Shown here one piece after another: positions 600-31,320 of a stretch of DNA of 35,007 nt. A program made the translations under genes and the position numbers. Under the pieces are notes generated by a model. It made no database searches. It saw nothing but the letters and a program-made list of their open reading frames with translations, and was not told the origin of the DNA. Position 1 is the first letter of the stretch, and each line of letters starts with the position of its first letter. Origin of the DNA: an uncultured bacterium (GTDB lineage: Bacteria > Patescibacteriota > Minisyncoccia > Phycocordibacterales > Phycocordibacteraceae); NCBI GenBank assembly GCA_903825105.1, contig CAIJZI010000003.1, positions 1 through 35,007 on the forward strand, in the 5' to 3' direction.

Positions 600-1268
600 T
601 TATTTAGTATCGCCGATCGCTCGCGCGATGGCTTCGATGTCTGGAAAATAAGTGTCGAAAGCTGTGTCTACAACACTGACATCTTCTGGGGCGTTTTGAA
701 TTCTTTTTGTGAAATAACGCGCGCCGATTAAATCGACGAGATGTTCTTTATACCAGTGGCGCACATTATATTTTTCTATAAATTCTTGAATGCCGATGTG
801 CACAATTTCGTGCGATATAACTCGCATTATTTGTTCCATTTGCCGATTCCGCCCGATATTTAAAGCAACCATTCCGGTTTTTGCATTATAACTTCCGCCA
901 CTTCCATATTGAGTGAGTTGAATGGTATATGGGTCAAAAAATTTAAAAGCAGGGATTTCTCTCAGTCGCTCTAATTTTTCAGCGAGCGCGGGCCACTGTT
1001 CTTGAATCTGATCAGCGAAATCTTTATAAAAATCTTCTTTAAATTCTGTAGCAACAATGGCTCGAACTTCTTCATCACTCGACTGCTCTGTTACCCCTTC
1101 GGGTAGACGCGAATTACGATCTCCGTATCCATTTTCACGAAACCAGGGCAATGTCTTAACTGCGTTTGTTGCATACCAGATTTCGCTCTTTTCACTAAAC
1201 ACACAGTGAATTCCAATACTATTTTTCTCTTTCTCTACATTATTTTCTGAGATACCTTCGTGACTCAT
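600..1268 (-). CDS. Hypothetical protein with HExxH motif (possible Zn-dependent peptidase fold)
   Basis: The 240-aa ORF contains ISHEIVHIG. Start moved to ATG 1268 (MSHEG..., 222 aa) because TATACT sits 7 nt upstream. Confidence 0.7.
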   Translation of the reverse strand: MSHEGISENNVEKEKNSIGIHCVFSEKSEIWYATNAVKTLPWFRENGYGDRNSRLPEGVTEQSSDEEVRAIVATEFKEDFYKDFADQIQEQWPALAEKLERLREIPAFKFFDPYTIQLTQYGSGGSYNAKTGMVALNIGRNRQMEQIMRVISHEIVHIGIQEFIEKYNVRHWYKEHLVDLIGARYFTKRIQNAPEDVSVVDTAFDTYFPDIEAIARAIGDTK

Positions 1269-1351
1269 GATGATAAGTATACACTTTCCAAAATTCGAGT
1301 GTGACGATACAAATATTCGCAATAAAAGTGAAGGTGCGTTAAATTATACAA

Positions 1352-2671
1352 ATGGATGTCTCAGCACATTTCCGCGGTAAAAAGATAACTGTGATGGGAC
1401 TTGGGTTGTTAGGTAGGGGGGTTGGCGATGCCCGTTATCTCGCTGAATGTGGCGCGGAGCTTATCGTTACCGATTTAAAAACGCGCGAGCAGTTGGCAGA
1501 ATCAGTGGCACAGATTGAAGCGTTCCCGAATGTGACATTTGTTCTTGGCGAGCATAGGCTAGAAGATTTTAGTGGGAGAGATTTAATTCTGAAGGCCGCC
1601 GGTGTTCCGCTCGATTCTACATATATCGCAGAGGCGAGAAAAAATAATATTCCAGTTCGTATGAGTGCTGATCTTCTGGTAGAAATTTCAGGAGTTCAGT
1701 GTATCGGGATTACCGGAACTCGAGGGAAGTCAACGGCCACTCATATGATTGGCACGATCTTACAGGAGGCAAAAAAGAAGGTGCTATTAGGCGGAAATAT
1801 TCGAGGAGTTTCGAACCTTCAATTATTTAATGAAGTTACTCCCGATCATATTGCCGTGCTTGAATTGGATTCGTGGCAATTGCAGGGATTTGGTGAAGCA
1901 AAAATGTCACCGCACATTTCCGTTTTTACTACTTTTTATAGCGATCATCTCAATTACTATCACGATGATTTAGATGCATATCTTGCTGACAAAGCGAACA
2001 TCTTTCTTTGCCAAAAATCAGATGACATTTTAATTCTTGGCGGGCAATGTGCACCGGCAATTATTGAAAAATACGGTAATAAAATTGAATCAAAAACAAT
2101 TGTCGCAGATGAATTAAACCTTCCAGACACTTGGGGGCTACAAATTCCAGGACTCCACAATCGTTATGACGCGGCGCTCGCGCTTGTGGCTGCTCGCGCA
2201 TATGGAATCCCAGACGAAATAAGTAAAATTGCGCTCATAAAATTTACAGGAGTTCCTGGGCGTCTTGAGCTTGTCGCAGAAAAAAAAGGCATAAAAATTT
2301 ATAACGATACAACGGCGACAACTCCAGAAGCAACAATTGCTGCCATTTCTGCATTAAATGATGGGTTTACGAAATCCATCATTTTAATTATGGGCGGTGC
2401 GGACAAGGGATTAGATATGGATGTACTTATTTCAAGACTTTCTGAACTTAAAAAAGTCATTTTACTTGAAGGCTCCGGAACGAGTCGTATAAAAAAAGAA
2501 CTTCCCAATGCAATTGTTTTTAATTCGCTTAAAGAAGCGGTCAGTGATGCATTCATGAATGCTGAAGTTGGTGACAGTGTTTTGTTTTCCCCAGCATTTG
2601 CTTCATTTGGAATGTTTAAAAATGAATTTGATCGCGGGGATCAATTTAATGCACTTGTGCAGAAATTATGA
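1352..2671 (+). CDS. murD: UDP-N-acetylmuramoyl-L-alanine:D-glutamate ligase
   Basis: N-terminal GLGLLGRGVG Rossmann motif, P-loop GITGTRGKST, ELDSWQL, DHLNYY, YNDTTAT and C-terminal SPAFASFGMFKNEFDRG. Confidence 0.95.
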   Translation: MDVSAHFRGKKITVMGLGLLGRGVGDARYLAECGAELIVTDLKTREQLAESVAQIEAFPNVTFVLGEHRLEDFSGRDLILKAAGVPLDSTYIAEARKNNIPVRMSADLLVEISGVQCIGITGTRGKSTATHMIGTILQEAKKKVLLGGNIRGVSNLQLFNEVTPDHIAVLELDSWQLQGFGEAKMSPHISVFTTFYSDHLNYYHDDLDAYLADKANIFLCQKSDDILILGGQCAPAIIEKYGNKIESKTIVADELNLPDTWGLQIPGLHNRYDAALALVAARAYGIPDEISKIALIKFTGVPGRLELVAEKKGIKIYNDTTATTPEATIAAISALNDGFTKSIILIMGGADKGLDMDVLISRLSELKKVILLEGSGTSRIKKELPNAIVFNSLKEAVSDAFMNAEVGDSVLFSPAFASFGMFKNEFDRGDQFNALVQKL

Positions 2672-3942: not shown

Positions 3943-3950
3943 TTTTAATA

Positions 3951-3997: not shown

Positions 3998-4807
3998 CTA
4001 GTTCGCTCCGACTTTTCCACGGTTAGCGATGACGAACAAATTCCGCGCCGTGGGATCTTTGCGTGTGTGTGTCAGCGACAGAAGTTCATCAAGTGGGTGT
4101 GAGGTTTGGGCACGGCTTATTCCGCACTCCTTAGCCTGGCCAAGGAGTATCCCCTCAAGAGAGATATATTTTCTTTTCCAGACTCCATTTGGCCAACGCT
4201 CGGAAATGAACTCCAAGAGATTCTTGTTAGAAGCCGTGTCATGCTCATAATCGTGCGGAGCTATAGCCCCGACCATGTGAATCGAGAGTTCTTTTGCAGG
4301 CACTCCATTTTTGTTGAATTCGCTCACGATCGAATACAGGATGCCCATATGTTCGCGAGTTGGATTACCAACGACAGCGCCCATATCAACAAGCGAGCGG
4401 AGACCTGCTTGACCGATAATGACCATCCCGCGGCCAGCAGCAATAATTGCTGGAGACCCAGCCCCACTCATTATGAGCGCGTGGCCCTTTGGAACAGGAA
4501 CTCCGTCAGCGCTGACGAGTTTATTGCGGTAGATGGTAATCTTCCCGCCGATTCCAAGAGCATTGACAAGCGCTTTCCCCTCGGTGACAAGACCGCTGAA
4601 TGCGACCACATTCGGTGCGAGGCATGTGTGCACACCCATTGTGTGAACTGCCTTTCTGATGTGCCGGCAAAGGGCGACATTTGATCGCACATCTTCCTGA
4701 GTCTGAAGCTTTGCGAGGGACCAATTTTTCCCGTGGTCGATATCGCCAGGGCCCCACGCCCCGATCCCGATCATTGTTCCACCAACACAGATTTGGAATC
4801 TTTCCAT
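3998..4807 (-). CDS. Divergent YfiH/PgeF (Cu-oxidase_4, laccase-like) homologue, catalytic residues substituted
   Basis: Segments align by eye to YfiH motifs: ADGVPVPKGHALIMSGAGSP (ADA...VMTADCLP), IIGQAGLRSL (AAAHAGWRGL), VGAIAPHDYE (GPAIGPRAFE), YISLEGILLGQ (YLADIYQLARQ) and HTRKDPTARN (SYRRDKTTGRM). Confidence 0.7.
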   Translation of the reverse strand: MERFQICVGGTMIGIGAWGPGDIDHGKNWSLAKLQTQEDVRSNVALCRHIRKAVHTMGVHTCLAPNVVAFSGLVTEGKALVNALGIGGKITIYRNKLVSADGVPVPKGHALIMSGAGSPAIIAAGRGMVIIGQAGLRSLVDMGAVVGNPTREHMGILYSIVSEFNKNGVPAKELSIHMVGAIAPHDYEHDTASNKNLLEFISERWPNGVWKRKYISLEGILLGQAKECGISRAQTSHPLDELLSLTHTRKDPTARNLFVIANRGKVGAN

Positions 4808-4918
4808 TTCTTTCTACTCCCCGTTCGGTTTATTTTGTTGTACTTCCGTAATCGATTATAGCGCACTAAAAAAGTAAGTCAATATGCGGTATTTACGCGA
4901 GTGCGGTATCATAGTGCT

Positions 4919-5401
4919 ATGGATAAACCCGTTGTCGTCATTCTAAAAAAGGAATCGTATCTCGCGATGATTGCTAATGCGGTTGGCACAAATCTTTTTC
5001 GTAATGTGTACGCCCGTGTTGATGGCGAGAAAAAAGATATTACCAAAGATGGTGTGCGGTCATGTGCGCTTTTTGTTTCTTCACTACTCAATCATTTTCA
5101 TTTGATTGATTCAAAAAGAGCACCACATACGACCATAGCGGGATTAGAAAAAAATATGAAAAATTCTGGTTGGAGTACAACAGAAGTTCCGCAGCCAGGA
5201 GACATAATAATTTGGGAGCCGAAGTTACAAGCTGATGCAGAAAATGCGCATGTTGGATTCTTTATAGGAGGAGACGAGGCGATCAGTAATGACTGGGAGA
5301 TGCGCGTGCCAATTAAACATCATATGACCTATGGCAAAAATGATGACGGTACTCCAGTCCGTGCGATTACAGCAATATACACCTATGATTTCTCTTCCTA
5401 A
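4919..5401 (+). CDS. NlpC/P60-CHAP-like cysteine hydrolase (hypothetical)
   Basis: SCALFVS (Cys), PQPGDIIIW and HVGFFIG (His) have papain-like amidase spacing. Start at ATG 4919 is preferred over GTG 4901 (TATCAT 6 nt upstream). Confidence 0.6.
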   Translation: MDKPVVVILKKESYLAMIANAVGTNLFRNVYARVDGEKKDITKDGVRSCALFVSSLLNHFHLIDSKRAPHTTIAGLEKNMKNSGWSTTEVPQPGDIIIWEPKLQADAENAHVGFFIGGDEAISNDWEMRVPIKHHMTYGKNDDGTPVRAITAIYTYDFSS

Positions 5402-5936
5402 CACTACTGAAATAACATATAACGACACGCTTCTCGATGTCCCGTATGCCTCACAATATCTTGATGTGATGAGTAATGAGCATAAGTTTCGTGCTTGCGG
5501 GATGACGAGCGTGTATATGGTTCTTAAATATTTTGGTGCCGCCGACCAATCACTCGATGAGTTAATCACTCGTGGCGAACGCGAGGGCGGATATGGCCCA
5601 TCAGGATGGATTCATGATTATCTCGTTAAAATGTTTCGCGATCACGGTTTCGCTTGTGAGCGACGCGAGAATGTGCGAGAGCGAGAAGTCACCAATTTTC
5701 GTGATGCGATTAAGGCCGGGAATCCCGTTATTGTGTCGGTCGAACGCGTGCTTTTCGATCGACGCGACTTTCATATTATTGTGCTCACGGGCGTGCGTGA
5801 AAATACAATGCGGGAATTGCAAGGATTTTTTTATCACGATCCCGGAGACACGAGAGAAATGAAGCATCGCTATGTACCTATTTCAACATTTTATTTAAGT
5901 TGGCGTAGAATGGCGATATTGCCAAAAAAAGTATGA
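5385..5936 (+). CDS. Peptidase C39-like family protein
   Basis: VPYASQ...ACGMTSVYMVLKYFG, GNPVIVSV, HIIVLTG and YHDP. Start at ATG 5385 overlaps the upstream stop region. Confidence 0.8.
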   Translation: MISLPNTTEITYNDTLLDVPYASQYLDVMSNEHKFRACGMTSVYMVLKYFGAADQSLDELITRGEREGGYGPSGWIHDYLVKMFRDHGFACERRENVREREVTNFRDAIKAGNPVIVSVERVLFDRRDFHIIVLTGVRENTMRELQGFFYHDPGDTREMKHRYVPISTFYLSWRRMAILPKKV

Positions 5937-6613
5937 GCACCCTCTCTATCGTTGCGACGCCGATCGGGAATTTGGAGGATATAACTTTGCGTGCGTTGCG
6001 CACGCTAAAAGAATGTGATGTGATTTATGCAGAAGATACGCGAGTGATTTCAAAATTGCTCGCCAAATATGAGGTAAAGAAGTCAGTTCAACGGCTCGAC
6101 GCGGCGACTGAAATCAAAAAAGCAGATGAGATAATCGCGCGGCTTGAAGCGGGCGAACATGTCGCTTTCGTCTCGGACGCCGGCACGCCAGGCATCTCTG
6201 ACCCTGGCGCGCGCCTTGTTTCTTATGCCCGAGATCAAATATCAAGGCGAGACCTTGATATTAAGATAGAAGCGATACCGGGGGCGTCTGCGCTCACTAC
6301 CGCGCTCTCTATTTCAGGAATGGAAGAAGTATTTACTTTCCTCGGATTTCTCCCCCATAAAAAGGGTAGGCAAACTGCGCTTAAAAAAATGTCAGAGAGT
6401 GAATACGCTACTGTGCTTTATGAATCCCCGCATCGGATAATTAAACTGCTCCAAGAACTCGAGGCTTTAAATGCGTCAAAAATAATTATCGCACGCGAAC
6501 TCACCAAGATTCACGAAGAAGTTATTTCTGGGACTCCGACAGAAATCCTCGAACATTTTTCAAATCATGAAGACACGATTAGAGGCGAGTTTGTCGTCAT
6601 CGTTTCGTTCTGA
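5933..6613 (+). CDS. rsmI: 16S rRNA (cytidine1402-2'-O)-methyltransferase
   Basis: IVATPIGNLEDITLRAL, AEDTR, SDAGTPGISDPG, IPGASA, FLGFLP, YESPHR, RELTKIHEE and RGEFV. Confidence 0.95.
   Translation: MSTLSIVATPIGNLEDITLRALRTLKECDVIYAEDTRVISKLLAKYEVKKSVQRLDAATEIKKADEIIARLEAGEHVAFVSDAGTPGISDPGARLVSYARDQISRRDLDIKIEAIPGASALTTALSISGMEEVFTFLGFLPHKKGRQTALKKMSESEYATVLYESPHRIIKLLQELEALNASKIIIARELTKIHEEVISGTPTEILEHFSNHEDTIRGEFVVIVSF
6238..6262. repeat. REP-like palindrome inside rsmI
   Basis: AATATCAAGG-cgaga-CCTTGATATT is a perfect 10-bp inverted repeat that encodes part of QISRRDLDI. Confidence 0.55.
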
Positions 6614-6625
6614 TAGACTAGCGGT

Positions 6626-6778
6626 ATGTCTCGACCATCAACACTCATTCTTCTCGGATTCTTAACTATCATCACACCGTTTTCTGGATTGCCAGTATCT
6701 TTCAGATCTCTTTTAGCAGTAATCTTTGGTGTGTGGATATTGGTTATAGGGTTGTCGATGCGTGCAAATAGGGAATAA
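6626..6778 (+). CDS. Small two-helix membrane protein (50 aa), absent from the ORF track
   Basis: Translates to MSRPSTLILLGFLTIITPFSGLPVSFRSLLAVIFGVWILVIGLSMRANRE. It fills the rsmI-ATPase gap, and TGaTAGACT lies 6 nt before the ATG. Confidence 0.75.
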   Translation: MSRPSTLILLGFLTIITPFSGLPVSFRSLLAVIFGVWILVIGLSMRANRE

Positions 6779-6799
6779 AGTTTTGCTATAATAAAACCG

Positions 6800-8458
6800 A
6801 TGGAAAACCCGGAACGCGTTACTTACTTCGCGGCGACCGACAGTCGTGGGAAGCATATTCCTTTTGGTATTAAAGCGAAGGACCGCAATAAGCACATGTA
6901 TGTGATCGGGAAGACAGGTATGGGGAAGTCGACTTTGCTCGAGAATATGGCGATTCAGGATATTCAAAATGGTGAAGGGCTCGCCTTTCTTGATCCGCAC
7001 GGCGGCTCGGCTGACAAGCTCCTCGACTATATTCCAAAAGAGCGCGTCAAGGATGTCGTCTACTTCGCGCCGTTCGATATGGAGCATCCGATCGCTTTTA
7101 ATGTGATGGAGGATGTGGGCTATGACAAGCGCCACCTGGTCGTGTCGGGTCTCATGGCAACCTTTAAAAAGATTTGGGTCGATGCGTGGAGCGCGCGTAT
7201 GGAATACATTCTTACCAACACGCTGCTCGCGCTGCTTGAATATCCGGACGCGACTCTGCTCGGAGTGAATCGAATGTATACCGATAAGGATTATCGGAAA
7301 AAAGTGGTCGATAATGTGAAAGACCCGGTGGTAAAAGATTTTTGGACAAAAGAATTTGCGAATTATGGTGATCGCTACACTCAAGAGGCGACGCCAGCCA
7401 TTCAAAATAAAGTCGGGCAGTTTACCGGGAATCCGCTCATTCGAAATATCATCGGTCAACCGAAATCCTCTTTTGATATCCGCACGATGATGGACGAAAA
7501 GAAAATCATCATTATGAATCTCTCGAAAGGGCGCGTCGGCGATACCAATATGCAACTGCTCGGCAGTATGCTCACGACACGCATCTTCCTCGCGGCGATG
7601 AGTCGCGCAGATCTGCGCGGTTCAGAAATTGATAAACTCCCGAGTTTTTATTTTTATGTTGACGAATTCCAAAACTTCGCGAATGAGACCTTCGCCGAGA
7701 TTCTTTCAGAAGCGCGAAAATATAAATTGAATCTTCTTATTGCGCACCAATATGTGGAACAAATGGAAGAAGAGGTGCGCGACGCAGTCTTCGGGAACGT
7801 GGGTACCACGATCGCTTTCCGGGTCGGGCCATTTGATGCTGAAGTACTGGAGACTATTTTTATGCCGAGGTTTACAAAAGAAGATTTGGTGGGTCTTGGC
7901 TTCGCACAGATATATCTTACTTTGATGATCGACAGTGTCGGATCGTCGCCTTTCTCTGCTGTCACGATTCCGCCGATAGAAGCGCCGCAAGTGAGTTATC
8001 GTGATGACATTATTGCTTCATCGAGAAAGCAATTTACTTCAGAGCGCGCGGGCGTTGAAAAATTGGTTATCGAAGAGCTCGAAACGAGTACCGCAGCAGA
8101 AGCGCCACTCGATGCTCGAATGCGTAAGCCGCCACAGCGTATGAAAGCCCCAAGCACTGTGGCATATACTCCTTCTCAAACGCCTCGTACTGTCGCACCA
8201 CAAGTTGTTACGCCTCGGCCGCAGGTTACTCCTGTGCCAATTAAACCGATCGCTCCGGCGGCGAGTGGCAAGTCTGCCAGTGATTTAAAAGATATTTTGA
8301 GAAAGATGACCGAGAAAAACGGTACAGAAAAAGAGCAGAAACAAACGCAAAGCAGCCAATCACTTAAGGGTGCCTTGTCAGAAATAATTTCAAAAGAAAA
8401 ACAGCCCTTCGAAGTGCCAGAAGACACGCTGCGCACGATATTGAAGGGCGAGAATTGA
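6800..8458 (+). CDS. VirD4/TrwB/TraG-like (HerA-FtsK superfamily) ATPase
   Basis: Walker A GKTGMGKS, DPHG, Walker B FYVDEFQNF, and SEARKY...AHQY...VFGNVGT. Pro/Thr/Gln-rich C-terminal tail; no N-terminal TM segments evident. Confidence 0.85.
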   Translation: MENPERVTYFAATDSRGKHIPFGIKAKDRNKHMYVIGKTGMGKSTLLENMAIQDIQNGEGLAFLDPHGGSADKLLDYIPKERVKDVVYFAPFDMEHPIAFNVMEDVGYDKRHLVVSGLMATFKKIWVDAWSARMEYILTNTLLALLEYPDATLLGVNRMYTDKDYRKKVVDNVKDPVVKDFWTKEFANYGDRYTQEATPAIQNKVGQFTGNPLIRNIIGQPKSSFDIRTMMDEKKIIIMNLSKGRVGDTNMQLLGSMLTTRIFLAAMSRADLRGSEIDKLPSFYFYVDEFQNFANETFAEILSEARKYKLNLLIAHQYVEQMEEEVRDAVFGNVGTTIAFRVGPFDAEVLETIFMPRFTKEDLVGLGFAQIYLTLMIDSVGSSPFSAVTIPPIEAPQVSYRDDIIASSRKQFTSERAGVEKLVIEELETSTAAEAPLDARMRKPPQRMKAPSTVAYTPSQTPRTVAPQVVTPRPQVTPVPIKPIAPAASGKSASDLKDILRKMTEKNGTEKEQKQTQSSQSLKGALSEIISKEKQPFEVPEDTLRTILKGEN

Positions 8459-9788: not shown

Positions 9789-10655
9789 ATGACAAAACAA
9801 AAACTCATTCTCGTGACTGGCGGTGCTGGCTTTATCGGCTCGCATCTCTGCGAGCGCTTGGTCAAAGATGGCCACCAGGTTATCTCGCTCGACAATTACT
9901 TTACCGGCTCTCGCGAGAATCATATCGAAGGCGTCGATTATCGCGAAGGTCATACGAAGGATATTGAGAAGCACGTTCCAGAAACGCCCGATATTGTGTA
10001 TCACCTCGGTGAATATTCGAGAGTAGAAAAAAGTTTTGAAGAACCAGCGCTTGTATGGGACTTAAACAAAGATGGTACATTTGGTGTACTTGAATTCTGG
10101 CGGAAGAAAAAATGCAAACTTTTGTATGCGGGTTCATCAACAAAATTTGCAGATGATGGCGCCGGGCGAGACCAAAGTCCTTATGCGTGGACAAAAGCAA
10201 CAAATACAGAACTCGTTAAAAATTATGGCAGCTGGTATGACTTATCGTATGCCATTACATATTTTTATAATGTGTATGGTCCCGGAGAACGCTCAGGCGC
10301 ATACGGAACAGTTATTGAAATTTTCAGAAAAAAATATAGTGCTGGCGAACCATTTACAATAACTGCTCCGGGAACGCAAAAAAGGAATTTTACTCATGTC
10401 GATGATATTATCGATGGCTTGGTGCTTGTAGGTTCGAACGGAATTGGAGATGGTTTTGGGATTGGCAATGAGCAAGCGTATTCAATACTTGAAGTCGCAA
10501 AACTATTTGGTGGTGAAATAGTAATGACTCTACCACGACAAGGTAACAGAATGATTTCAGAAATTAACACATCAAAAACACGTGCTCTCGGCTGGTCGTC
10601 AAAAAAGAATCTAGCCGATTACATTTCTGATATTTGTTTACACAAAACGGTCTAA
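9789..10655 (+). CDS. NAD-dependent epimerase/dehydratase (extended SDR)
   Basis: VTGGAGFIGSHL, YxxxK motif (YAWTK) and FYNVYGP. Start moved to ATG 9789. Confidence 0.9.
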   Translation: MTKQKLILVTGGAGFIGSHLCERLVKDGHQVISLDNYFTGSRENHIEGVDYREGHTKDIEKHVPETPDIVYHLGEYSRVEKSFEEPALVWDLNKDGTFGVLEFWRKKKCKLLYAGSSTKFADDGAGRDQSPYAWTKATNTELVKNYGSWYDLSYAITYFYNVYGPGERSGAYGTVIEIFRKKYSAGEPFTITAPGTQKRNFTHVDDIIDGLVLVGSNGIGDGFGIGNEQAYSILEVAKLFGGEIVMTLPRQGNRMISEINTSKTRALGWSSKKNLADYISDICLHKTV

Positions 10656-12717: not shown

Positions 12718-12734
12718 TCGCGTAGAATAGCACT

Positions 12735-13826
12735 ATGCGTGTTGTTATAGCCACTCCGCTCTATCCACCAGACATTGGCGGCCCGGCGACTGATGCCTCT
12801 TCTCTTGTTTCGTATCTTGAAAAAAATGAGAAAGAAATAAAAGCGACAGTTTGTCAATTTGGTCGAGTAAGGCATTTGCCAAAATTGATACGCCATATCG
12901 CTTATGGATTTATTCTCGCGCACGCGTCACGCGGAGCGGATTGTGTAGTTGTATTTGATACTGTTTCTGTTGGACTGCCGGCGATGATTGTTTCTAAAAT
13001 AATGCGCGTGCCATTTATCGTGCGCGTCCCAGGAGATTATGCTTGGGAACAGGGCGTCCAGAGATTTGGCGTAAAGGATTCTATAGATGAATTTCAAAAT
13101 AAAAAATATGGATTTCGCGTCGAGCTCTTACGCGCGGTACAAAATTTTGTCGTGCGAAACGCTCTGCGTGTGCTCGCGCCCAGTGAATATTTTAAAAAAA
13201 TAATATTCGGATGGGGAGTGAAAAAAGGAAATGTAAAGAGAATATATCTCGGTCTTGATTTTACTACACACACAGAAACTCCAGCGAGTGTTCCAGATGG
13301 AAAAATTATATTTTCAGCAGGGCGACTCGTGCCGTGGAAAGGGTTCTCGATGCTTCTCCATATCTTGCCCGAATTGCCGGAATGGAAATTAGTTATTGCA
13401 GGAGACGGGCCATTAAAAAATGAGTTGTATGAACAAGCACAAAAGCTTGATATCTTAGATCGAGTGATATTTACGGGCTCTCTATCCCGCGCGCAGATTG
13501 TAGGATGGCTTAAAACGGCTGATGTATTTGTGCTCAACACCTCATTTGAAAGCTTTTCATTTCAAATTGTTGAGGCAATGGCTAGTGGCATCCCCGTTAT
13601 AACGACTCCGGTTGGTAGTATCCCTGAGCTTATAGAAAACGGCGTGAATGGCATTCTGTGTCATCCGAACAATGAAAAAGCGTTTAAAGAGGCTATTTTA
13701 AGTGTTGCCACGGAACAAGAGCTTTGGGTAAAACGCATCGTTTTAGCAAAAGAAAAAACAGGACAATTCACGAGTGGGAAAGCGATGGAAGAATTAGTGA
13801 AAGATATAAAAAATATATGCGCATAA
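12735..13826 (+). CDS. Glycosyltransferase family 4
   Basis: PPDIGGP, GRLVPWKG, GDGP and ESFSFQIVEAMASG. Confidence 0.9.
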   Translation: MRVVIATPLYPPDIGGPATDASSLVSYLEKNEKEIKATVCQFGRVRHLPKLIRHIAYGFILAHASRGADCVVVFDTVSVGLPAMIVSKIMRVPFIVRVPGDYAWEQGVQRFGVKDSIDEFQNKKYGFRVELLRAVQNFVVRNALRVLAPSEYFKKIIFGWGVKKGNVKRIYLGLDFTTHTETPASVPDGKIIFSAGRLVPWKGFSMLLHILPELPEWKLVIAGDGPLKNELYEQAQKLDILDRVIFTGSLSRAQIVGWLKTADVFVLNTSFESFSFQIVEAMASGIPVITTPVGSIPELIENGVNGILCHPNNEKAFKEAILSVATEQELWVKRIVLAKEKTGQFTSGKAMEELVKDIKNICA

Positions 13827-21322: not shown

Positions 21323-22549
21323 CGTTACGACAATAGCGATACTGTCGGTCAGTATTCGTGCGAAGAGCATACCCAAAATGCCATAAGAAAGAAGAAGGGG
21401 GATTTGTAAAAAGACCAAGAGGAGGGGATTTAAGAGGCCGACAATGTAGAGCTCGCGCTTCAATTGTTTTGCGATAAGCGCGGTCGTAATCATATTAAGG
21501 ACGGCGAGCAGTACAATAATGACCGCATAGACTTGGGTGTACCACACAGTGTTCATATACCGAGGGAAGAGAAGATGAAAGAGATACGGGGCGCACAGAA
21601 TGTACGCAATCGTCGCGAGAGAGGCAAAGACCGCGACGCGTGCTAATTTCGGGAGGATATTTTCTTTAATAGAAGCATGGGTTTGATTAGAAAATTTTGG
21701 CAATGAGGCAACGCCAATGAAATTAAAAAATCCAGAAGCTTTTTCTGGTATCATGGTCGCGAAACTGTACACAGCGAGATTTATAGGGCCGAGGAAATGG
21801 AAGACAAGGATTGAATCAAGTTGTGTAAGAATTGTCCCGAAAGCATTTATGACACTCAAGTGTTTGCCATACGGTATGGTTTCAGGATCGACGGAATCAT
21901 TCGGTCTGTAACTTTTTAAAGTCTTCCAGTATACATACGCAGTGGCAATAGTGTTTACACCTATATTTACAAGAAGGAGGAGTGGCGCGTTCTTTAAGAA
22001 AATAATAGCTATGAAGATCGAAACATAGTAGGTAATGGTAATAATAAGATTAAATTGGAATCCTTTTTTGAATTCTTTCTTTCCGTTTAGAAATGCTGCA
22101 TAGGTGCTAAAGGTGTTAACAAGCGGTGTTAAAAACGCTATACACACAAGACCGATACCGATCTCATTATTGCTGTGCAGGAAATAATATATGGCGCCTG
22201 CGATACTTAAAATTCCTGGCACGACAGCCCATTGTAGTTGCGCGCGGACTGAAGTTCTAAGCGCGCCTTCATAGCCGCGGGCGACGGCTTGGGTCACCGC
22301 ATTCGTCATACCGCCAAGCATCAGCGCACTCGCGAGCGCTGACAGCGAGAGGAGGTATTGATAGGTGCCGTAGGTTTCAGGAGATAAGAAATTTGCGAAG
22401 GCAACAGACAATAGTACTGCCAGTACTGAAGTAATAATGAAATTAAGATTTACCCAAAAGCCCGTTTTTACCAAATAGACCATATCGGTCTTGGTATATT
22501 TCTCGCTCGAGCGCAGAAGGGAAATAATGCGTATCTTAAGGTTTGCCAT
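21272..22549 (-). CDS. wzx: Wzx-type oligosaccharide flippase (polysaccharide biosynthesis protein)
   Basis: Many TM helices; YGTYQY early loop; YGKHLS...DSILV...LAVYSFA pattern. Start moved to ATG 22549 (TATGAT 7 nt upstream). Confidence 0.8.
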   Translation of the reverse strand: MANLKIRIISLLRSSEKYTKTDMVYLVKTGFWVNLNFIITSVLAVLLSVAFANFLSPETYGTYQYLLSLSALASALMLGGMTNAVTQAVARGYEGALRTSVRAQLQWAVVPGILSIAGAIYYFLHSNNEIGIGLVCIAFLTPLVNTFSTYAAFLNGKKEFKKGFQFNLIITITYYVSIFIAIIFLKNAPLLLLVNIGVNTIATAYVYWKTLKSYRPNDSVDPETIPYGKHLSVINAFGTILTQLDSILVFHFLGPINLAVYSFATMIPEKASGFFNFIGVASLPKFSNQTHASIKENILPKLARVAVFASLATIAYILCAPYLFHLLFPRYMNTVWYTQVYAVIIVLLAVLNMITTALIAKQLKRELYIVGLLNPLLLVFLQIPLLLSYGILGMLFARILTDSIAIVVTLFLFFRATGHESPQSL

Positions 22550-22597
22550 AAGCTCTATCATACAGAATATACCTAGATATGGTATATTTCTTTCATT

Positions 22598-24787
22598 ATG
22601 AAAAAAGACGGTACCGCGGTGCATATTTCCAAATGGATTTCTCTCAGTGCGCTCTTTCTTATCACCCTAGCGCCGCTTGTGGTGCCCAGTTCGTACTTTT
22701 TCCCCTTTATTACTGGCAAAGCATTTTTCTTTAGGATTCTGGTAGAGATTGCCGTTTGTGCTTGGGTAGTGCTTGCCTTTCTTGATAAAGAATATCGTCC
22801 GCGCTTTTCTTGGATTGGTGGAGTAGTTCTTGCTTTTACTTTATGGATGTTTGTCGCTGACTGTTTCGCGATTAATCCTATGAAAGCATTTTGGAGCAAT
22901 TTCGAACGAATGGAAGGGTGGGTATTACTCATTCATCTCTTTGGATTTTTTGTGGTTGCGAGTTCAGTTCTTCGGGTAGAAAAAAAGTGGCGCGCATGGT
23001 TTCTTGCTTCGCTTGGCGTTTCTGTCGTTGTATCGTTGTATGCGATTCTTCAAGTCGCAGGAGTTTTGCAGATTCATCAAGGGTCTACGCGCATTGATGC
23101 CACTTTCGGCAATTCTGCATATCTGGCAATTTATTTTCTCTTTAATGTATTTATTGCACTCTGGCTCGCTTTCTCATCCAAAGATGAATCGGGAAAATCT
23201 GATAAACAAAAATGGCTCAAGTGGTCACTTATCACTCTCGCTGCTGTTGAGGCTGTGCTTATCTTTCTTACCGAGACGCGCGGAGCTATCTTAGGACTCG
23301 TGGGAGCACTCGCTCTTGTCGCACTTCTCGTTTCTCTTACCGCAGGGAAGCGCTTCCGCCGCTTTGCGATGGGCGCATTCGCTGGGATTCTTATCTTGAG
23401 CGGAATTTTTTATCTCGCACGCAACTCAAGTGTCGTTCAACAAAATCACGTCCTGCATCGCATTGCATCGATCTCTCCAGCTGATGGCCAAACACGATTC
23501 ACCATTTGGCATATAGCATTTCAGGGTGTGGCTGAGCGGCCTATTGTCGGATGGGGTCAAGAAGGTTTCAATTATGTTTTTAGTAAATATTTTGACCCGT
23601 CGCTGTATCAACAGGAAGCATGGTTCGACCGCGCACACAATGCCTTTATTGATTGGCTTATCGCAGGAGGTGTTCCAGCATTTATTCTGTACCTTTCACT
23701 TTTTGTTTCTGCAATTATCCTGCTTTGGAAACGATCAGAGCTCGCGCGCTCAGAAAGAATATTCTTAACAGCGGCGCTTGTCGGGTATGCCTGTCACAAT
23801 CTGTTTGTATTCGACAATCTATATTCCTACATTTATTTTTTCGCGATACTCGCGCTTATTGATTCTCAAATCGCACGGCCATTCGCTTTTTTTGAGCACA
23901 CACCAGAACTAAGTGCCGAGGATGGCACACTCTACGCTCTACCCGTCGCTCTTGTCGCTGCGTGTACACTTATTTGGACGGTTAATGTATCGGGCATAAA
24001 CACATCGTCAAAACTTATTGCTGCTTTGTCGACACAAGGGAATGACCTCCCAACGAGCATTGCTCTTTTTGAAGATCTCGCAGCGCACCCCTCATTTGCT
24101 TCACAAGAAATTCGCGAACAGCTGGTAAGCTACGAGTCATCGGTTGTGCAAAATTCGTCCGCAACAAATGAAGAAAAACAGAAAGTAGCATCACTTGCGA
24201 TAAGTGAAATGCAAAAACAAACAGCAGAATATCCGCTCGATGTACGCGAGCATTTGGAACTTTTTGTTGCCTATCGAACGGCGGGGGACAATGAGAATGC
24301 ATCAAAAGAGATGGAAACGGCGATTAAACTTTCTCCAAAAAAGGAAACGACTTGGATTCAAGCGGGAGTTTTTGAAATGGCGATTGGTAACATACAAATG
24401 GCGCAAGCAGATTTTAATGTCGCGTATCTGCTCGGTCCACAATTTTCTGAACTCGCCGCGTATGCAGCGGCAGGAGATATTATGGTGGGAGATAAGACAA
24501 CAGGAGACAAACTCCTTCTCGGGGCATATGGCACGACGACCGTGGATAGCGACATCCTCGCTGTCGCGTATTACCGAACGAAAGATTGGCAGCGTCTTAT
24601 AAACCTTTGGGTGCTGCGCGTAAATAATGCGAATGCATCCGTACAGACATGGTTCGGACTCGCATCGGCGTATTATGTTTCTGGTGATACTCTGGGTGCC
24701 GTTAAAGTAATTAAAGAAGCTGTACAAAAATATCCAGAAGCCGCTCAATCGGGTGCGGCGATAATTTCAGAGATAGAAAAAAAATAA
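22598..24787 (+). CDS. O-antigen ligase-like (Wzy_C) membrane protein with C-terminal TPR-like helical domain
   Basis: ATFGNSAY, TETRGA, R...W...G.ERPIVGWGQEGF and AHNAFID...GG. Polytopic N-terminal half and helical C-terminal ~250 aa. Confidence 0.85.
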   Translation: MKKDGTAVHISKWISLSALFLITLAPLVVPSSYFFPFITGKAFFFRILVEIAVCAWVVLAFLDKEYRPRFSWIGGVVLAFTLWMFVADCFAINPMKAFWSNFERMEGWVLLIHLFGFFVVASSVLRVEKKWRAWFLASLGVSVVVSLYAILQVAGVLQIHQGSTRIDATFGNSAYLAIYFLFNVFIALWLAFSSKDESGKSDKQKWLKWSLITLAAVEAVLIFLTETRGAILGLVGALALVALLVSLTAGKRFRRFAMGAFAGILILSGIFYLARNSSVVQQNHVLHRIASISPADGQTRFTIWHIAFQGVAERPIVGWGQEGFNYVFSKYFDPSLYQQEAWFDRAHNAFIDWLIAGGVPAFILYLSLFVSAIILLWKRSELARSERIFLTAALVGYACHNLFVFDNLYSYIYFFAILALIDSQIARPFAFFEHTPELSAEDGTLYALPVALVAACTLIWTVNVSGINTSSKLIAALSTQGNDLPTSIALFEDLAAHPSFASQEIREQLVSYESSVVQNSSATNEEKQKVASLAISEMQKQTAEYPLDVREHLELFVAYRTAGDNENASKEMETAIKLSPKKETTWIQAGVFEMAIGNIQMAQADFNVAYLLGPQFSELAAYAAAGDIMVGDKTTGDKLLLGAYGTTTVDSDILAVAYYRTKDWQRLINLWVLRVNNANASVQTWFGLASAYYVSGDTLGAVKVIKEAVQKYPEAAQSGAAIISEIEKK

Positions 24788-25054: not shown

Positions 25055-25089
25055 AGACCAAATAAACGAGAAATGCTATAATGAAGATA

Positions 25090-27603
25090 ATGTTCGGCAT
25101 ATCCAAGCTTTTTACGAAGAATGAGTCAGCGTCCTTCTTAAAGGCCGCGGCACCTATCGTGGTAGCGACAAATGCTTTTTCTGAAGAATTCCGAGTGCTC
25201 TCCGATGAAGACCTTCGTGCGCGATTCAAAGAAATATACGATCAATCGCGAGAGGTGAGTGTTGCTTCTGAAAAAGATATTCCACTTATCTTTGCACTCG
25301 TGCGGGAAGCGTCTCGTCGCACACGAAATGAGTTTCACTTCGATGTTCAACTTATCGGCGGACTCGCGTTGCTTCGTAGTAAGGTAGCGGAGATGCGCAC
25401 AGGAGAAGGGAAGACGCTTGTTGCAACTCTCCCAGCTACTTTCCATGCACTGTCGGGGAAAGGAGTGCAAATTATTACGGTCAATGATTATCTCGCGCGG
25501 CGTGATACCACTTGGATGGGGCAGGTGTATGACTTCCTTGGACTCACAGTTGGCGTAGTGACCTCAACAGGCTCATATCGCTACGATGCGTCGCATATCT
25601 CAAAAGAAGAAGACTCTGAACGAGACGCAGAAGGATCGTTCAAAGTCTTCTATGACTATTTGCGCCCAGTGACAAAGAAAGAGGCATACGCCTGTGACAT
25701 CACCTATGTGACGAACAATGAACTCGGCTTCGATTATCTTCGCGACAACACTGCGTATGACGCTTCTCAAATCGTTCAGCGAGGATTTCACTATGCGATT
25801 ATCGACGAAGTGGATTCAATTTTAATTGATGAGGCGCGTATGCCGCTTATCATCTCTGGGCCGTCGGGCGATTCACAGATGTTTTATGAAAAATTCGCAG
25901 AGATTGTCAGGGGGATGAAAGAGGGAGAGGATTATGCTGTAGATGAAAAACAAAAAGCGATTCAGATAACCGAAGAAGGAATGCATAAGGCCGAAGTGGC
26001 GCTCGGACTCGAAAATATTTATACCGAAGGCGGGATTAAATATGCACACCATCTCGAGACCGCGGTGCGCGCACAAGCCCTTTTCTTTAAAGATAAAGAA
26101 TATGTCGTACGCGATGATGAGATTATTATTGTCGATGAATTCACGGGGAGAATGCAGCCCGGGAGACGCTGGTCAGACGGACTCCATCAGGCGATTGAAG
26201 CAAAAGAGGGTGTGAAGATTCAAGCAGAAACGCGCACATACGCGAGTGTCACCTTTCAAAATCTTTTTAGAATGTATGAAAAGCTCGCTGGAATGACCGG
26301 CACAGCGCTCTCTTCAGAAGAAGAATTTTATACCGTTTACAAGCTTGAAGTCGTTGTAGTGCCGACAAATAAACCATCGCTTAGAAAAGATCATAGTGAT
26401 CTCGTATTCCAAACGGCGAAAGGGAAATATACTGCGGTTGCGCGCGCGGTGAAGGAGCGTTATCAGAAAGGTCAGCCGGTATTGGTTGGTACCGTTTCGG
26501 TTGAAGATAATGAAATTGTCAGCGAATACTTAAAAGATGCGGGCGTTCCGCACGAAGTGTTGAATGCGAAGAATCACGAGCGCGAGGGAGAGATTATCGC
26601 CGAGGCGGGTAAAGAGGGAAGAATAACGGTCGCGACTAACCTCGCTGGTCGTGGCGTCGACATTAAACTCGGCGGTGCACTCGCCTCGGCAGAAGAGCGT
26701 GCTTCGGTCATCGAGAAGGGCGGGCTTATGGTTATCGGTACCGAGCGACACGACGCTCGTCGTATCGACAACCAGCTTCGCGGGCGTTCGGGACGACAAG
26801 GCGACCCAGGCGAAACGCGCTTTTATGTATCTCTTGAAGATAAGTTGATGCGCGTCTTCGCGGCTGACACCTTGAAAAAGGTGATGGGCCGTTTTGGCAT
26901 CCCTGAAGATGAGCCAATCGAGAGCGGGATCATTAGTAAGTCGCTTGAGACCGCACAGGGTCGAATCGAAGGATATAACTTCGACTCGCGTAAACAAGTC
27001 CTCGCGTATGACGATGTGATGAATACCCAGCGTCTCGCTATTTATGCACGCCGACGCGCGGCGCTTACGGGCACACCAGAAGAGGTAGAAGATATTTTTA
27101 ATATGCTTATTGAAGAGAGCGAGACGGCAAAAATCGCTTTCAATACAAAGAAAATAGAGCTCGATGATGACTTTGTCGATCACCTGCGCCGCCTTCTGCT
27201 CCAGGCAGTTGATGTCTTCTGGCTCGAACATCTAGAGACGATGGACTATTTGCGTAAATCGGTGTCGCTCCGCGCTTATGGCCAGCGTGATCCATTAATA
27301 GAATACCGTCGCGAGGGGCTCATCAGATTCCGCCAGCTTGAAGCAGACATTAAAGCAAAGGTACTAGAGGTATTGCCGTTTCTCCAGCGAGCTGATGATG
27401 CGCGTATTCGCGCAGAAGAAGAAAAGATTCGTGCCGCGATGATTGCCGCAGGAAAAGAAGAAGGGAGCGCGCAGCCGATTAAGAAGAGTGGTGAACACGG
27501 GCGAAACGATATTGTCACGATTAAAAAAGGCGACGAGACAAAAGAAATAAAATATAAAAAAGCCGAACCCTTCATCAACAATGGTTGGACCATTGTTGAA
27601 TAA
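25090..27603 (+). CDS. secA: Preprotein translocase ATPase SecA
   Basis: EMRTGEGKT, TVNDYLA, IDEVDSILIDEARMPLIISG, GRRWSDGLHQAIEAKE, LNAKNHERE, ATNLAGRGVDI and RIDNQLRGRSGRQGDPG. ATG 25081 overlaps the -10 box, so 25090 is preferred. Confidence 0.97.
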   Translation: MFGISKLFTKNESASFLKAAAPIVVATNAFSEEFRVLSDEDLRARFKEIYDQSREVSVASEKDIPLIFALVREASRRTRNEFHFDVQLIGGLALLRSKVAEMRTGEGKTLVATLPATFHALSGKGVQIITVNDYLARRDTTWMGQVYDFLGLTVGVVTSTGSYRYDASHISKEEDSERDAEGSFKVFYDYLRPVTKKEAYACDITYVTNNELGFDYLRDNTAYDASQIVQRGFHYAIIDEVDSILIDEARMPLIISGPSGDSQMFYEKFAEIVRGMKEGEDYAVDEKQKAIQITEEGMHKAEVALGLENIYTEGGIKYAHHLETAVRAQALFFKDKEYVVRDDEIIIVDEFTGRMQPGRRWSDGLHQAIEAKEGVKIQAETRTYASVTFQNLFRMYEKLAGMTGTALSSEEEFYTVYKLEVVVVPTNKPSLRKDHSDLVFQTAKGKYTAVARAVKERYQKGQPVLVGTVSVEDNEIVSEYLKDAGVPHEVLNAKNHEREGEIIAEAGKEGRITVATNLAGRGVDIKLGGALASAEERASVIEKGGLMVIGTERHDARRIDNQLRGRSGRQGDPGETRFYVSLEDKLMRVFAADTLKKVMGRFGIPEDEPIESGIISKSLETAQGRIEGYNFDSRKQVLAYDDVMNTQRLAIYARRRAALTGTPEEVEDIFNMLIEESETAKIAFNTKKIELDDDFVDHLRRLLLQAVDVFWLEHLETMDYLRKSVSLRAYGQRDPLIEYRREGLIRFRQLEADIKAKVLEVLPFLQRADDARIRAEEEKIRAAMIAAGKEEGSAQPIKKSGEHGRNDIVTIKKGDETKEIKYKKAEPFINNGWTIVE

Positions 27604-27651: not shown

Positions 27652-28017
27652 ATGAAGACGGAGAAAACAAAACAATACGATCTGGAAGAAAGAACAATGA
27701 GATTTGCCAGCGAAGTGCGCACATTCGTACGACTGTTGCCGAAATCAATCGCGAATCGTGAAGATACGAGTCAGGTAGTGAGGTCTTCAGGTTCAGTAGG
27801 AGCAAATTATATCGAGGCAAACGAATCGTTAAGCAAAAAGGATTTTGTGATGCGTATAAAAATCTCCCGCAAAGAAGCGAAAGAAACTGCTTTTTGGTTA
27901 AAACTCATTGACACTGGCGGCAACGCCTTACTCGAAGAAAAGCGAAATGCGCTACACCAAGAAGCTCGGGAATTAATGTTCATATTGAGTTCAATTATGA
28001 GAAAATTTGAATCCTAA
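27652..28017 (+). CDS. Four-helix-bundle protein (23S rRNA IVS-protein / TIGR02436-type family)
   Basis: DLEERT..F...V, QVVRSSGSVGANYIEA, SKKDF..RIKISRKEAKETAFWL; 121 aa. Confidence 0.92.
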   Translation: MKTEKTKQYDLEERTMRFASEVRTFVRLLPKSIANREDTSQVVRSSGSVGANYIEANESLSKKDFVMRIKISRKEAKETAFWLKLIDTGGNALLEEKRNALHQEARELMFILSSIMRKFES

Positions 28018-28030
28018 TTTTTTTATTTCT

Positions 28031-28067: not shown

Positions 28068-28089
28068 CCACTCGTGCTAGAGTGGCTGT

Positions 28090-29064
28090 ATGGCATTCGT
28101 GGACGAGATCAGGATATACGCGGAGTCGGGGAAAGGTGGCGACGGGGTCGTCCGCTGGCTCCATACCAAGACAAACGCCCGTGGCGGGCCATCGGGAGGC
28201 GACGGGGGCAGGGGCGGCGACGCGGTGCTTCTTGGTGTGCGCGATTATGCGGCTCTAGCGCACTATCGTTTTGAAAAAAAGTTTTGTGCAGAAAAGGGAG
28301 AAGACGGTAAAAATAATTTAAAGCACGGCGCGAACGGTGCAGATATCTTGATACGCGTACCCGTAGGCACTGTCGCGCGTGTTATTGATACCGGCGTTGA
28401 ATACGAAATGACCAAAGAAGATGAGAGGATCGTTATCTTCCGTGGGGGAATGGGTGGTAAAGGTAATGCCCGTTTTAAGAGTTCTACCAATCAAAACCCA
28501 TTTGAATTAACAAAAGGTAAGGATAATAAAGGTGGCGATATCGAGCTTAGTCTTAAGATTATCGCAGATGCTGGGCTTATAGGGCTCCCTAATTCAGGGA
28601 AGTCGTCTCTTCTTAATGCGCTCACACAAGCCAAGTCTATTGTCGGTGATTATCCTTTTACGACGCTTGAACCGCATCTCGGCGACTTCTATAGACGAAT
28701 ACTGGCGGACATCCCAGGGCTTATTGAGGGGGCCTCGTCTGGAAAAGGGCTTGGTATAAAATTTCTTAAGCACATAGAACGCACAAGGATTCTGCTACAT
28801 CTCGTCTCGGCTAGCCAAGATGACCCTATCGCATCATATAGAGAAGTACGCAATGAGGTTGAACTGTTTGGGCGCGGCTTACCTGACAAGAAGGAGATCA
28901 TTATCCTGTCAAAAATAGACCTTATTTCGCCCGAAGAATGCGAAACTAAAAAGCAGCTCCTTATACGCGAGACAGGCAGGGAAGTGCTCCTCGTCTCAAT
29001 AAAAGACCCGGTCGTTCTTAAAGAGTTTTCAGATCGACTTACGAAGCTCCTTGATATAAACTAG
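28090..29064 (+). CDS. obgE: GTPase ObgE/CgtA (short form)
   Basis: MAFVDE...SGKGGDG, GGPSGGDGGRGGD, GLPNSGKS, YPFTTLEPHLG and DIPGLIEGAS.GKGLG..FL.HIERT. Confidence 0.96.
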   Translation: MAFVDEIRIYAESGKGGDGVVRWLHTKTNARGGPSGGDGGRGGDAVLLGVRDYAALAHYRFEKKFCAEKGEDGKNNLKHGANGADILIRVPVGTVARVIDTGVEYEMTKEDERIVIFRGGMGGKGNARFKSSTNQNPFELTKGKDNKGGDIELSLKIIADAGLIGLPNSGKSSLLNALTQAKSIVGDYPFTTLEPHLGDFYRRILADIPGLIEGASSGKGLGIKFLKHIERTRILLHLVSASQDDPIASYREVRNEVELFGRGLPDKKEIIILSKIDLISPEECETKKQLLIRETGREVLLVSIKDPVVLKEFSDRLTKLLDIN

Positions 29065-29075
29065 AGATATCCCTT

Positions 29076-30518: not shown

Positions 30519-30573
30519 CTATAAAAGTGCATAAGCTGTTCCATTCCAGACGAGATATGTATATACTGCCTGT

Positions 30574-31320
30574 ATGGATGAGATTTTTATAGAAGAAAAA
30601 AAATATATATCGTCAAAACAAGCGGCAAAGGTTACGGGGTACGCCAAGGACTATATAGGGCAACTTTGTAGAGAAGGGCGTGTGCCGGCAAGGCTCGTGG
30701 GTAGGAATTGGTATGTTCTAGAGACGGCGATTCAGGATCACCGTTTTGGAGATTCTGAAATGGAACAAGGAGATACAGAAAAAGGAGAAGAGGCTATATC
30801 TGAGATACCAGAACCAGTAAATCCTGCTGCGAGCGGCATACAAGAGTCATGGCAAGCATGGTTTGACCGTGTTGATACGGCAGTAGAAAAGCCAACTGAA
30901 TCAGTCGAGTCTGAGAAGATGGAGATCGAAGTTGTTGAAGATAGCCCAATAGAGCAAGAGACTATAGCTGAAGAAGAGAGTGAGCCGGAGAAGCCTGTTG
31001 TAGACAGTATTGAAGCAACGGTTGTGCCGATACGCACAATAACTGCAGAGCCTAAGGCGTACTCGATTCCGGAGGACTTGTTGCCGAGGAACAATACAGA
31101 GTCTCCGCTTGTCGTTGGACGTGCCCGTACAGTGCGAAAAATAGGGAAGAGGCACGCACTTACTTTTCTCCGCGCTATAGAGATAACGGGCGCAGTTTTT
31201 GCCACGATCTCTTTAGTTGTAGCGGCTCTCGGCACAGGATACTTCGATCATTATGTGCTCTCGAATAGTCAAGCAAGTGTTTTGTCGGGAGTATCACTCT
31301 ATAATAAAGCGCTTAAATAA
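30574..31320 (+). CDS. Excisionase/MerR-type (HTH_17-like) HTH protein with acidic linker and C-terminal TM helix
   Basis: YISSKQAAKVTGYAKDYIGQLCREGRVPARLVGRNWYV; E-rich disordered middle; hydrophobic ITGAVFATISLVVAALGTG near the C-terminus. Confidence 0.8.
   Translation: MDEIFIEEKKYISSKQAAKVTGYAKDYIGQLCREGRVPARLVGRNWYVLETAIQDHRFGDSEMEQGDTEKGEEAISEIPEPVNPAASGIQESWQAWFDRVDTAVEKPTESVESEKMEIEVVEDSPIEQETIAEEESEPEKPVVDSIEATVVPIRTITAEPKAYSIPEDLLPRNNTESPLVVGRARTVRKIGKRHALTFLRAIEITGAVFATISLVVAALGTGYFDHYVLSNSQASVLSGVSLYNKALK

Follow-up and report, generated by a model that had tools for sequence, protein, structure and literature searches.

How does a ribosome find its start codons when the 3' end of its 16S rRNA no longer carries the sequence that pairs with Shine-Dalgarno (SD) sites? 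The question is raised by a stretch of 35,007 nt from an uncultured bacterium (the window; contig CAIJZI010000003.1), in which an earlier note, made from the sequence alone, had remarked on a TANNNT hexamer resembling a bacterial -10 box that stands 6 or 7 nt before the ATG of ten genes. The window opens with the final 202 nt of a 16S rRNA gene, followed by a tRNA-Ile gene (438-512), and belongs to a genome of 600,757 bp in 9 contigs with an estimated completeness of 96%. Its SecA protein is 66-81% identical to SecA of 80 metagenome-assembled genomes, many of which are labelled Candidatus Kaiserbacteria, Paceibacterota, or Parcubacteria; judged by these identities, the host is a Kaiserbacteria-like member of the Paceibacteria/Parcubacteria in the candidate phyla radiation (CPR). 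The best reading of the data presented below, and in our view a likely one, is that this host relies on leaderless or near-leaderless mRNAs together with stop/start coupling. The leaderless interpretation offered in the earlier note is supported, as each of its sequence-level predictions that we tested held.

Genes were called genome-wide with our own open reading frame (ORF) scorer, which uses dicodons and returned 612 genes of at least 80 codons. TANNNT was then profiled at each distance from the first ATG of each ORF (602 first ATGs), the spacer being the number of nucleotides between the end of the hexamer and the ATG. Of these ATGs, 121 had the hexamer at spacer 6 and 61 had it at spacer 7 (182 in total, 30.2%), compared with 27.4 expected from spacers 12-40 (mean of 13.7 genes per spacer, binomial P = 2e-94) and with 41.1 ± 6.0 obtained from local 30-nt shuffles. 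The mode in the host is 6 nt, and spacer 8 accounts for 32 sites. At internal in-frame ATGs the hexamer occurred in 0.7% (spacer 6) and 1.7% (spacer 7) of cases, within the range of 0.2-2.0% seen over spacers 0-40. The positional enrichment upstream of starts that the earlier note had proposed to look for is present genome-wide as a sharp peak at 6-7 nt.

When the pattern was restricted to TA[TC]NNT so as to exclude stop codons, spacers 6 and 7 still had 122 sites compared with 15.4 expected, and the peak is therefore not an artefact of picking the first ATG past a stop. The same spacing emerged without any gene calls, as TGNTANNNT-N6-ATG occurred 64 times, with 40, 26, and 20 occurrences for N7, N8, and N9 and about 10 at other spacings, so that the annotation-free total for N6 and N7 was 104 compared with about 20. 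A genome-wide set of the 80 best boxes (TGnTA[TC]A[ACG]T) contained 42 with an ATG 6-9 nt downstream that starts a reading frame of at least 60 codons, and only 2 with such an ATG at a control spacing of 16-19 nt. About 30% of the genes thus have a box at 6-7 nt; counting spacers 8-9 as well and allowing for chance matches brings the share that looks leaderless or near-leaderless from its upstream sequence to about 33% of genes, or roughly half of all transcription units.

The properties of the box point to a promoter element, not a ribosome site. In the logo derived from 202 genes with a box 6-7 nt before an ATG among their first four candidate starts (hereafter the box class), T is found at -3 (0.48) and G at -2 (0.55), and the free positions inside the hexamer are T, A, and A, yielding TGnTATAAT, an extended -10 promoter. 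The alignment of these 202 genes has no informative position between -35 and -10, and a canonical -35/-10 model was dropped when its matches in window scans did not exceed those in shuffled sequence (29 versus 35.1 and 30 versus 27.3). The box also precedes tRNA genes: of 43, 10 have it at exactly 8 nt from the mature 5' end and another 12 at 4-17 nt. It is therefore a transcription signal, and from these distances many tRNA precursors should carry leaders of only ∼2-10 nt. The tRNA-Ile gene downstream of the 16S gene appears to have a promoter of its own, an extended -10 box (TGGTATTAT, 419-427, plus strand) that ends 10 nt before it.

In line with this assignment, few of the cistrons that overlap their upstream gene are preceded by a box (7 of 112), whereas boxes are common before other genes. 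The box is nearly restricted to one start codon, since longest-ORF starts with a box at 6 or 7 nt comprised 146 ATG, 5 GTG, and 0 TTG, whereas 22-27% of coupled and other starts were GTG or TTG. Leaderless initiation depends on a 5'-terminal AUG, and the near-restriction of the box to ATG fits this dependence. In addition, we analyzed 400 kb of the genome of another genus of the same family (G006), whose 16S tail reads AAUUCC and not AUAUCC. The logo was nonetheless unchanged, so that motif and tail do not covary.

The 3' tail of the 16S rRNA (GAACAUAUCCAAU, 190-202, plus strand), which an Rfam alignment places at SSU_rRNA_bacteria positions 1521-1533, reads GGAACAUAUCCAAU compared with the consensus GGAUCACCUCCUUU; UAUCC (195-199) stands where the anti-SD core CCUCC is expected, and no CCTCC occurs between the tail and the tRNA gene. 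A tail without CCUCC was found in all 27 family relatives from which it could be recovered, 18 of which read GAACATATCCA. In every relative the altered tail keeps a UCC that is followed by a complementary GGA (UCCAAUUUGGA, UCCAAUCGGA, UCCAAGUGGA; window 195-210 and loci L081-L110), which might allow the formation of a small hairpin at the 16S 3' end or immediately beyond it. Neither bS21 (PF01165) nor uL1 (PF00687) had a match in the host genome at its estimated 96% completeness, and the uL1 profile matched in 14 of 14 control genomes. The bS1 protein is short, with 357 aa and 3-4 S1 domains (C9:54837-55874). bS21 was also not found in the control genomes of Thermus, Deinococcus, Corynebacterium, and Thermotoga, and the phyla of the first three are listed as rich in leaderless transcription (PMC6028130).

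SD-like 5-mers were present at positions -17 to -4 in 23 of 612 genes, compared with 16-27 in control windows, and in box genes these words were at or below background. The statement in the earlier note that AGGAGG-type sites are essentially absent is thus accurate, and residual use of SD sites was dropped as a candidate for lack of a net excess of such words. A compensatory SD that matches the new tail was rejected as well, as GGATA, GATAT, and TGGAT are not enriched before starts. A set of 21 mostly short genes (median 150 aa) does have GGAGG- or AGGAG-type words 5-9 nt before the start. These genes cluster (for example at C6:108080-114513, C6:139812-140996, C8:61040-63084, C5:51888-53506, and C9:27977-28849, and in the window at 3998-4807 on the minus strand), and none of the 21 has a homologue in the 400 kb of G006, whereas 42% of the other genes do (P = 1.5e-5). 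The set may consist of recently acquired genes or of spurious ORFs, and because the total of SD words is not above that of control windows, a role for the words in these genes is unproven.

Genes without a box were divided by their distance from the upstream gene. Besides the 202 genes of the box class, 166 genes have no box and overlap, or lie within 10 nt of, an upstream gene on the same strand, and 244 genes have neither signal, although a strong box is present at 8-9 nt in 31 of these. Same-strand junctions include 46 overlaps at -4, 40 of which are ATGA, and 76 gaps of 0-10 nt; overlaps (ATGA and TAATG-type) and gaps of 1-10 nt together join 166-188 same-strand pairs. GGAGG or AGGAG was found upstream of 0 of the 166 coupled starts. 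The earlier note had held that most of the remaining genes are coupled, which is true of the window, where there are ten or eleven box-type genes, ten tightly coupled genes, three more that become coupled after start correction, and about five with neither signal. It does not extend to the genome, in which 166 of 410 box-less genes are coupled within 10 nt. The proposal that initiation relies mainly on leaderless starts plus re-initiation was too strong, given that ∼35-40% of genes show neither signal.

The box is retained in relatives of the host at two loci. At secA, 78 of the 80 loci were comparable and most have TGnTAnnnT 6-9 nt before the ATG, with a variable spacer sequence and a modal spacing of 8 nt (49 of 85 boxes). 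The most distant SecA relatives (66-68% identity, L070-L077) have a TATAGT box ∼20-27 nt before the ATG with a TATATA-rich stretch after it, and a short leader appears to be present there. At obg, a box lies 5-11 nt before the start in 24 of 29 relatives, again with a variable spacer sequence and most often at 8 nt (10 of 27 boxes), and the encoded N terminus, MAFVDE, is invariant among the relatives; in four relatives obg either lacks a box or is coupled to the gene before it. Genome-wide, G006 shows the same peak in a broader form, with 38, 27, 47, and 33 of 411 genes at spacers 6, 7, 8, and 9. Among G006 orthologues with an alignable N terminus, the box was kept in 43 of 64 leaderless-type genes, compared with 13 of 39 coupled and 19 of 47 remaining genes. 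The modal distance from box to ATG is hence 6 nt in the host and 8 nt in G006 and in secA and obg of most relatives, which suggests either that leader length is lineage-specific (0 versus 2 nt) or that transcription starts at a different distance from the -10 box.

To compare more genomes, we used an annotation-free index, the count of the pattern TGNTANNNTN{6,7}ATG divided by that of its reversed control. This ratio was 5.0 in the host genome (n = 1), with medians of 4.8 in genomes of the same genus (n = 28), 3.05 in other genera of the family (n = 32), and 1.85 in genomes of the phylum that have a canonical CCUCC tail (n = 47). Two genomes of the phylum in which the 16S tail was not found had ratios of 4.2 and 14.3. 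The leaderless signature is strongest in the family of the host, yet it is not confined to genomes without CCUCC.

These observations can be joined in a single scheme of initiation. With UAUCC in place of CCUCC in its tail, and with bS21 not found, the ribosome would be unable to form an SD helix. The first genes of transcription units would be transcribed from extended -10 promoters (TGnTAtaaT) that lack a -35 element, with RNA polymerase starting ∼7 nt past the hexamer. As the hexamer ends 6-9 nt before the ATG, the transcript would begin at the A of the ATG in the 6-nt class, as the spacing rule known from Escherichia coli predicts, and 1-3 nt upstream in the 7-9-nt classes; transcription thus probably starts at the AUG or within 3 bases of it. 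The 5'-terminal AUG would be used directly for initiation, as it is on known leaderless mRNAs, by ribosomes that may load as 70S or as 30S particles. Downstream cistrons would mostly be reached by termination and reinitiation at ATGA overlaps or across gaps of 1-10 nt.

Several points weigh against this scheme or narrow it. The gene calls come from a home-made ORF scorer and cover only ORFs of at least 80 codons, ∼15% of the sites at 6 or 7 nt are expected by chance, and the ∼35-40% of genes that have neither box nor coupling fall outside the scheme. Conservation of the box in orthologues is moderate, at 67% compared with 33-40% in a generous control. Spacers of 7-9 nt may mean leaders of 1-3 nt, and A at the 7th nucleotide past the hexamer is only weakly enriched. 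A purine at this position was considered as a start marker and dropped, as only the spacer-7 sites of G006 show it clearly, while elsewhere it approximates the A-richness at -2/-3. Finally, six sampled genomes outside the family that lack CCUCC had index ratios of 0.9-3.4, and CCUCC genomes still had ∼1.85. Because ratios outside the family are mixed in this way, tail loss and leaderless layout are not strictly linked, and a strict phylum-wide link between anti-SD loss and the leaderless signature was dropped. The fit with an altered 16S tail that the earlier note had drawn stands insofar as the tail is altered throughout the family, but the link is not one-to-one across the phylum.

The main rival accepts the boxes as real promoters and holds that most transcripts do not start exactly at the A but have short leaders (1-5 nt or longer), with some other 5'-proximal feature recruiting the ribosome. 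The modal spacing of 8 nt in the relatives, at secA, at obg, and across G006, speaks for such leaders, as does the box 8 nt before tRNA genes, which looks as though transcription began ∼2 nt before the mature end; at the spacer-7 sites of G006, moreover, A at -1 is enriched (0.52 versus 0.14). The host itself, however, has its mode at 6 nt, with 121 sites compared with 32 at 8 nt, and leaders of up to 5 nt are usually classed and treated as leaderless, which also counts against this rival. We regard it as unlikely, and it differs little in mechanism from the leaderless reading.

Far less probable is a second alternative, in which the TA-rich box is a non-SD ribosome-binding or standby element on leadered mRNAs, like the motif of the Bacteroidetes-type group B defined by GeneMarkS-2, and perhaps pairs with the AU-rich 16S tail. 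The AUAU of the tail could indeed pair weakly with UAUA-type boxes, and the box is placed where a ribosome-binding site would be. Against this, the conserved TGn extension is contacted by the polymerase and does not pair with the tail, and the same box stands before tRNA genes. The group B motif precedes all genes (PMC6028130), whereas the box of the host is depleted before overlapping cistrons. The motif also stays the same in G006 despite its AAUUCC tail, and the complements GGATA and GATAT are neither positioned nor enriched; on these grounds the ribosome-site reading was rejected. That the pattern is a mere by-product of AT-rich intergenic composition, in-frame stops, or biased start calling has next to no probability and was rejected, since, even though TAA or TAG may form part of TANNNT at the in-frame spacers 0, 3, 6, 9, and 12, and spacers 0 and 9 are mildly raised, the peak survives the TA[TC]NNT restriction, the local shuffles, and the annotation-free count, and spacer 7, which is out of frame, is still enriched about fourfold.

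We return to the individual sites in the window. All ten starts listed in the earlier note were found in the sequence with exactly the hexamers and spacers given there, and five of them have a TGn extension, as 22549 on the minus strand (TGtTATGAT) joins the four that had been marked. On the minus strand, a TATACT box (1276-1281) is followed after 7 nt by the ATG at 1268 of a 222-aa gene (box to start codon, 1266-1281), a start that supersedes the longest-ORF TTG start at 1322. Divergent from this gene is murD, whose TAAATT box (1340-1345) lies 6 nt before the ATG at 1352 (1340-1354, plus strand) and whose MurD-like_N profile starts at residue 10. The remaining sites on the plus strand that lack the extension are a TATCAT box (4907-4912) 6 nt before the ATG at 4919 of a CHAP-like protein (4907-4921), which supersedes a GTG at 4901; a TAGAAT box (12723-12728) 6 nt before the ATG at 12735 of a group 1 glycosyltransferase (12723-12737); and a TATACT box (30562-30567) 6 nt before the ATG at 30574 of an HTH_17 protein (30562-30576).

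Among the extended boxes, TGATAGACT (TGaTAGACT, 6611-6619) has a 6-nt spacer to the ATG at 6626 (6611-6628, plus strand). The ORF at 6626 has 49 codons and encodes a two-helix hydrophobic product (window 6611-6775), and the TGA stop codon of the rsmI-like gene upstream (5933-6613) is at the same time the TGn of this box. The box TGCTATAAT (TGcTATAAT) occurs twice on the plus strand, each time with a 7-nt spacer: at 6784-6792 it precedes the ATG at 6800 of a VirD4/TraG-like ATPase (6784-6802), with a position weight matrix (PWM) score of 10.2 out of a maximum of 10.7, and at 25074-25082 it precedes the ATG at 25090 of secA (25074-25092). The box TGCTAGAGT (TGcTAGAGT, 28075-28083) lies 6 nt before the ATG at 28090 of obg (28075-28092, plus strand), and position 1 of the GTP1_OBG profile aligns to residue 4 from this start. 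On the minus strand, TGTTATGAT (22557-22565) has a 7-nt spacer to the ATG at 22549 of a polysaccharide flippase-like gene (22547-22565); with this start, the head-to-head overlap with the divergent gene at 22598 disappears. That divergent gene, which encodes a Wzy_C/TPR protein, provides an eleventh, near-leaderless site that was absent from the earlier list, as its extended box TGGTATATT (22580-22588, PWM score 8.8) lies 9 nt before the ATG at 22598 (22580-22600, plus strand).

The corrections of start calls that accompanied these sites are supported by Pfam profiles that open within a few residues of the proposed starts. The start of secA at 25090 is likewise supported by its relatives, as the SecA alignment opens at residue 1, encoded there, in 61 of 78 species, namely those that are 71-81% identical to the window SecA, and the upstream ATG at 25081 overlaps the box itself.

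Most other genes in the window are coupled. The stop codon of murD and the start codon of murC overlap in an ATGA (2668-2671, plus strand), and further overlaps of -4 are found at 5933, 8455 (TTGA), 11857, 14866, 18198, and 20432, with junction gaps of 1-5 nt at 17047, 19052, and 19650. Correction of the starts adds couplings at 9789 (+2), 10655 (-1), and 13826 (-1). Pfam profiles support these starts; from 9789, for instance, position 1 of the epimerase profile falls at residue 7. The genes with neither signal are those at 4807 (minus strand), 5331/5385, 27652, 29076, and 32079. The gene at 27652-28017, which lies between secA and obg, encodes a homologue of the 23S rRNA intervening-sequence protein (PF05635), and its upstream region is A-rich with neither box nor coupling. 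The giant surface-protein gene at 32079 has no box, and GGATATCC ends 5 nt before its ATG (window 32053-32081). GGATAT, located 7 nt before this ATG, is the exact complement of AUAUCC in the tail; the case stands alone, and across the genome GGATA shows no enrichment.

The proposed layout shares features with several known systems. Leaderless initiation is itself known, and the loss of the anti-SD in Parcubacteria has already been published. Tsurumaki et al. 2022 (RNA 28:1041, PMC9297842) described an anti-SD-less subgroup of Parcubacteria that lacks uL1 and in which SD helices probably do not form. The host appears to be a member of this subgroup, with which it shares a tail without CCUCCU, the failure to find uL1 and bS21 (the latter often lacking there), and a short bS1. 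We found no mention of leaderless mRNAs or of a replacement for SD sites in the full text of that paper.

In group C genomes, which are mainly Actinobacteria (e.g. Mycobacterium tuberculosis) and Deinococcus-Thermus (PMC6028130; PMC3898074), the genes that open operons have a Pribnow box 6-8 nt ahead of their start, and 25-50% of operons are predicted to be leaderless (PMC6028130). The host resembles this group in having such a box near the starts of first genes and leaderless starts without SD. It departs from it in that group C keeps the 16S CCUCC and uses SD sites at other genes, whereas the host has lost the anti-SD and its SD words are at background, so that only the first half of the group definition, leaderless first genes, describes the host. 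Its promoters also differ from those of group C in being of the extended -10 type without a -35 element. The main text of PMC6028130 does not mention the candidate phyla radiation. Group B retains the anti-SD and has one motif before first and internal genes alike, unlike the host, which has lost the anti-SD and has no motif before coupled genes.

In group D archaea, such as Haloferax volcanii and Sulfolobus solfataricus, the frequency of leaderless transcription is 60-80% (PMC6028130). The host would share with them a majority or near-majority of transcription units that start at the start codon, together with internal cistrons that are coupled, but archaeal promoters rely on TBP, TFB, and a TATA box ∼26 nt upstream, whereas the host has a bacterial -10 box 6-9 nt upstream and a lower predicted leaderless frequency. 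Coupling by termination and reinitiation at overlapping stop and start codons was reportedly described by Huber et al. in 2019 (in Nat Commun), and the host has the same overlapping or abutting stop/start geometry. Reinitiation in most bacteria is aided by an SD that lies within the upstream gene, whereas in the host no SD can act. A literature search, which did not cover subscription journals, returned no paper that links anti-SD loss to leaderless genes or that describes leaderless genes in the CPR, and it yielded no mapped transcription starts for this lineage.

One practical consequence concerns annotation. Callers based on the longest ORF or on SD sites misplace starts such as secA (25081 versus 25090), 1322 versus 1268, 4901 versus 4919, and 22624 versus 22549, and start calling in CPR genomes is directly affected.

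The loss of the anti-SD in Parcubacteria had left open how start codons are found, and the layout described here is a testable answer for about half of the transcription units, to which coupling adds an answer for many of the remaining genes. Extensive leaderless usage, so far a trait of Actinobacteria and Deinococcus-Thermus, would thereby reach a third bacterial radiation, and a very large one, and the layout would provide a natural system for SD-independent initiation in bacteria. A broader proposition, to which we give slightly less than an even chance, is that Kaiserbacteria, and perhaps much of the anti-SD-less Paceibacteria, have abandoned SD pairing altogether. Their ribosome, lacking CCUCC, bS21, and uL1, would initiate almost exclusively on 5'-terminal AUGs that extended -10 promoters without a -35 element produce, and through reinitiation inside operons. 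If so, a whole bacterial lineage would have no mechanistic means of SD-led initiation, and a further SD-independent route, as yet undescribed, would be required for the ∼35-40% of genes with neither signal. Such a regime would be nearer to that of haloarchaea or mitochondria than to that of model bacteria.

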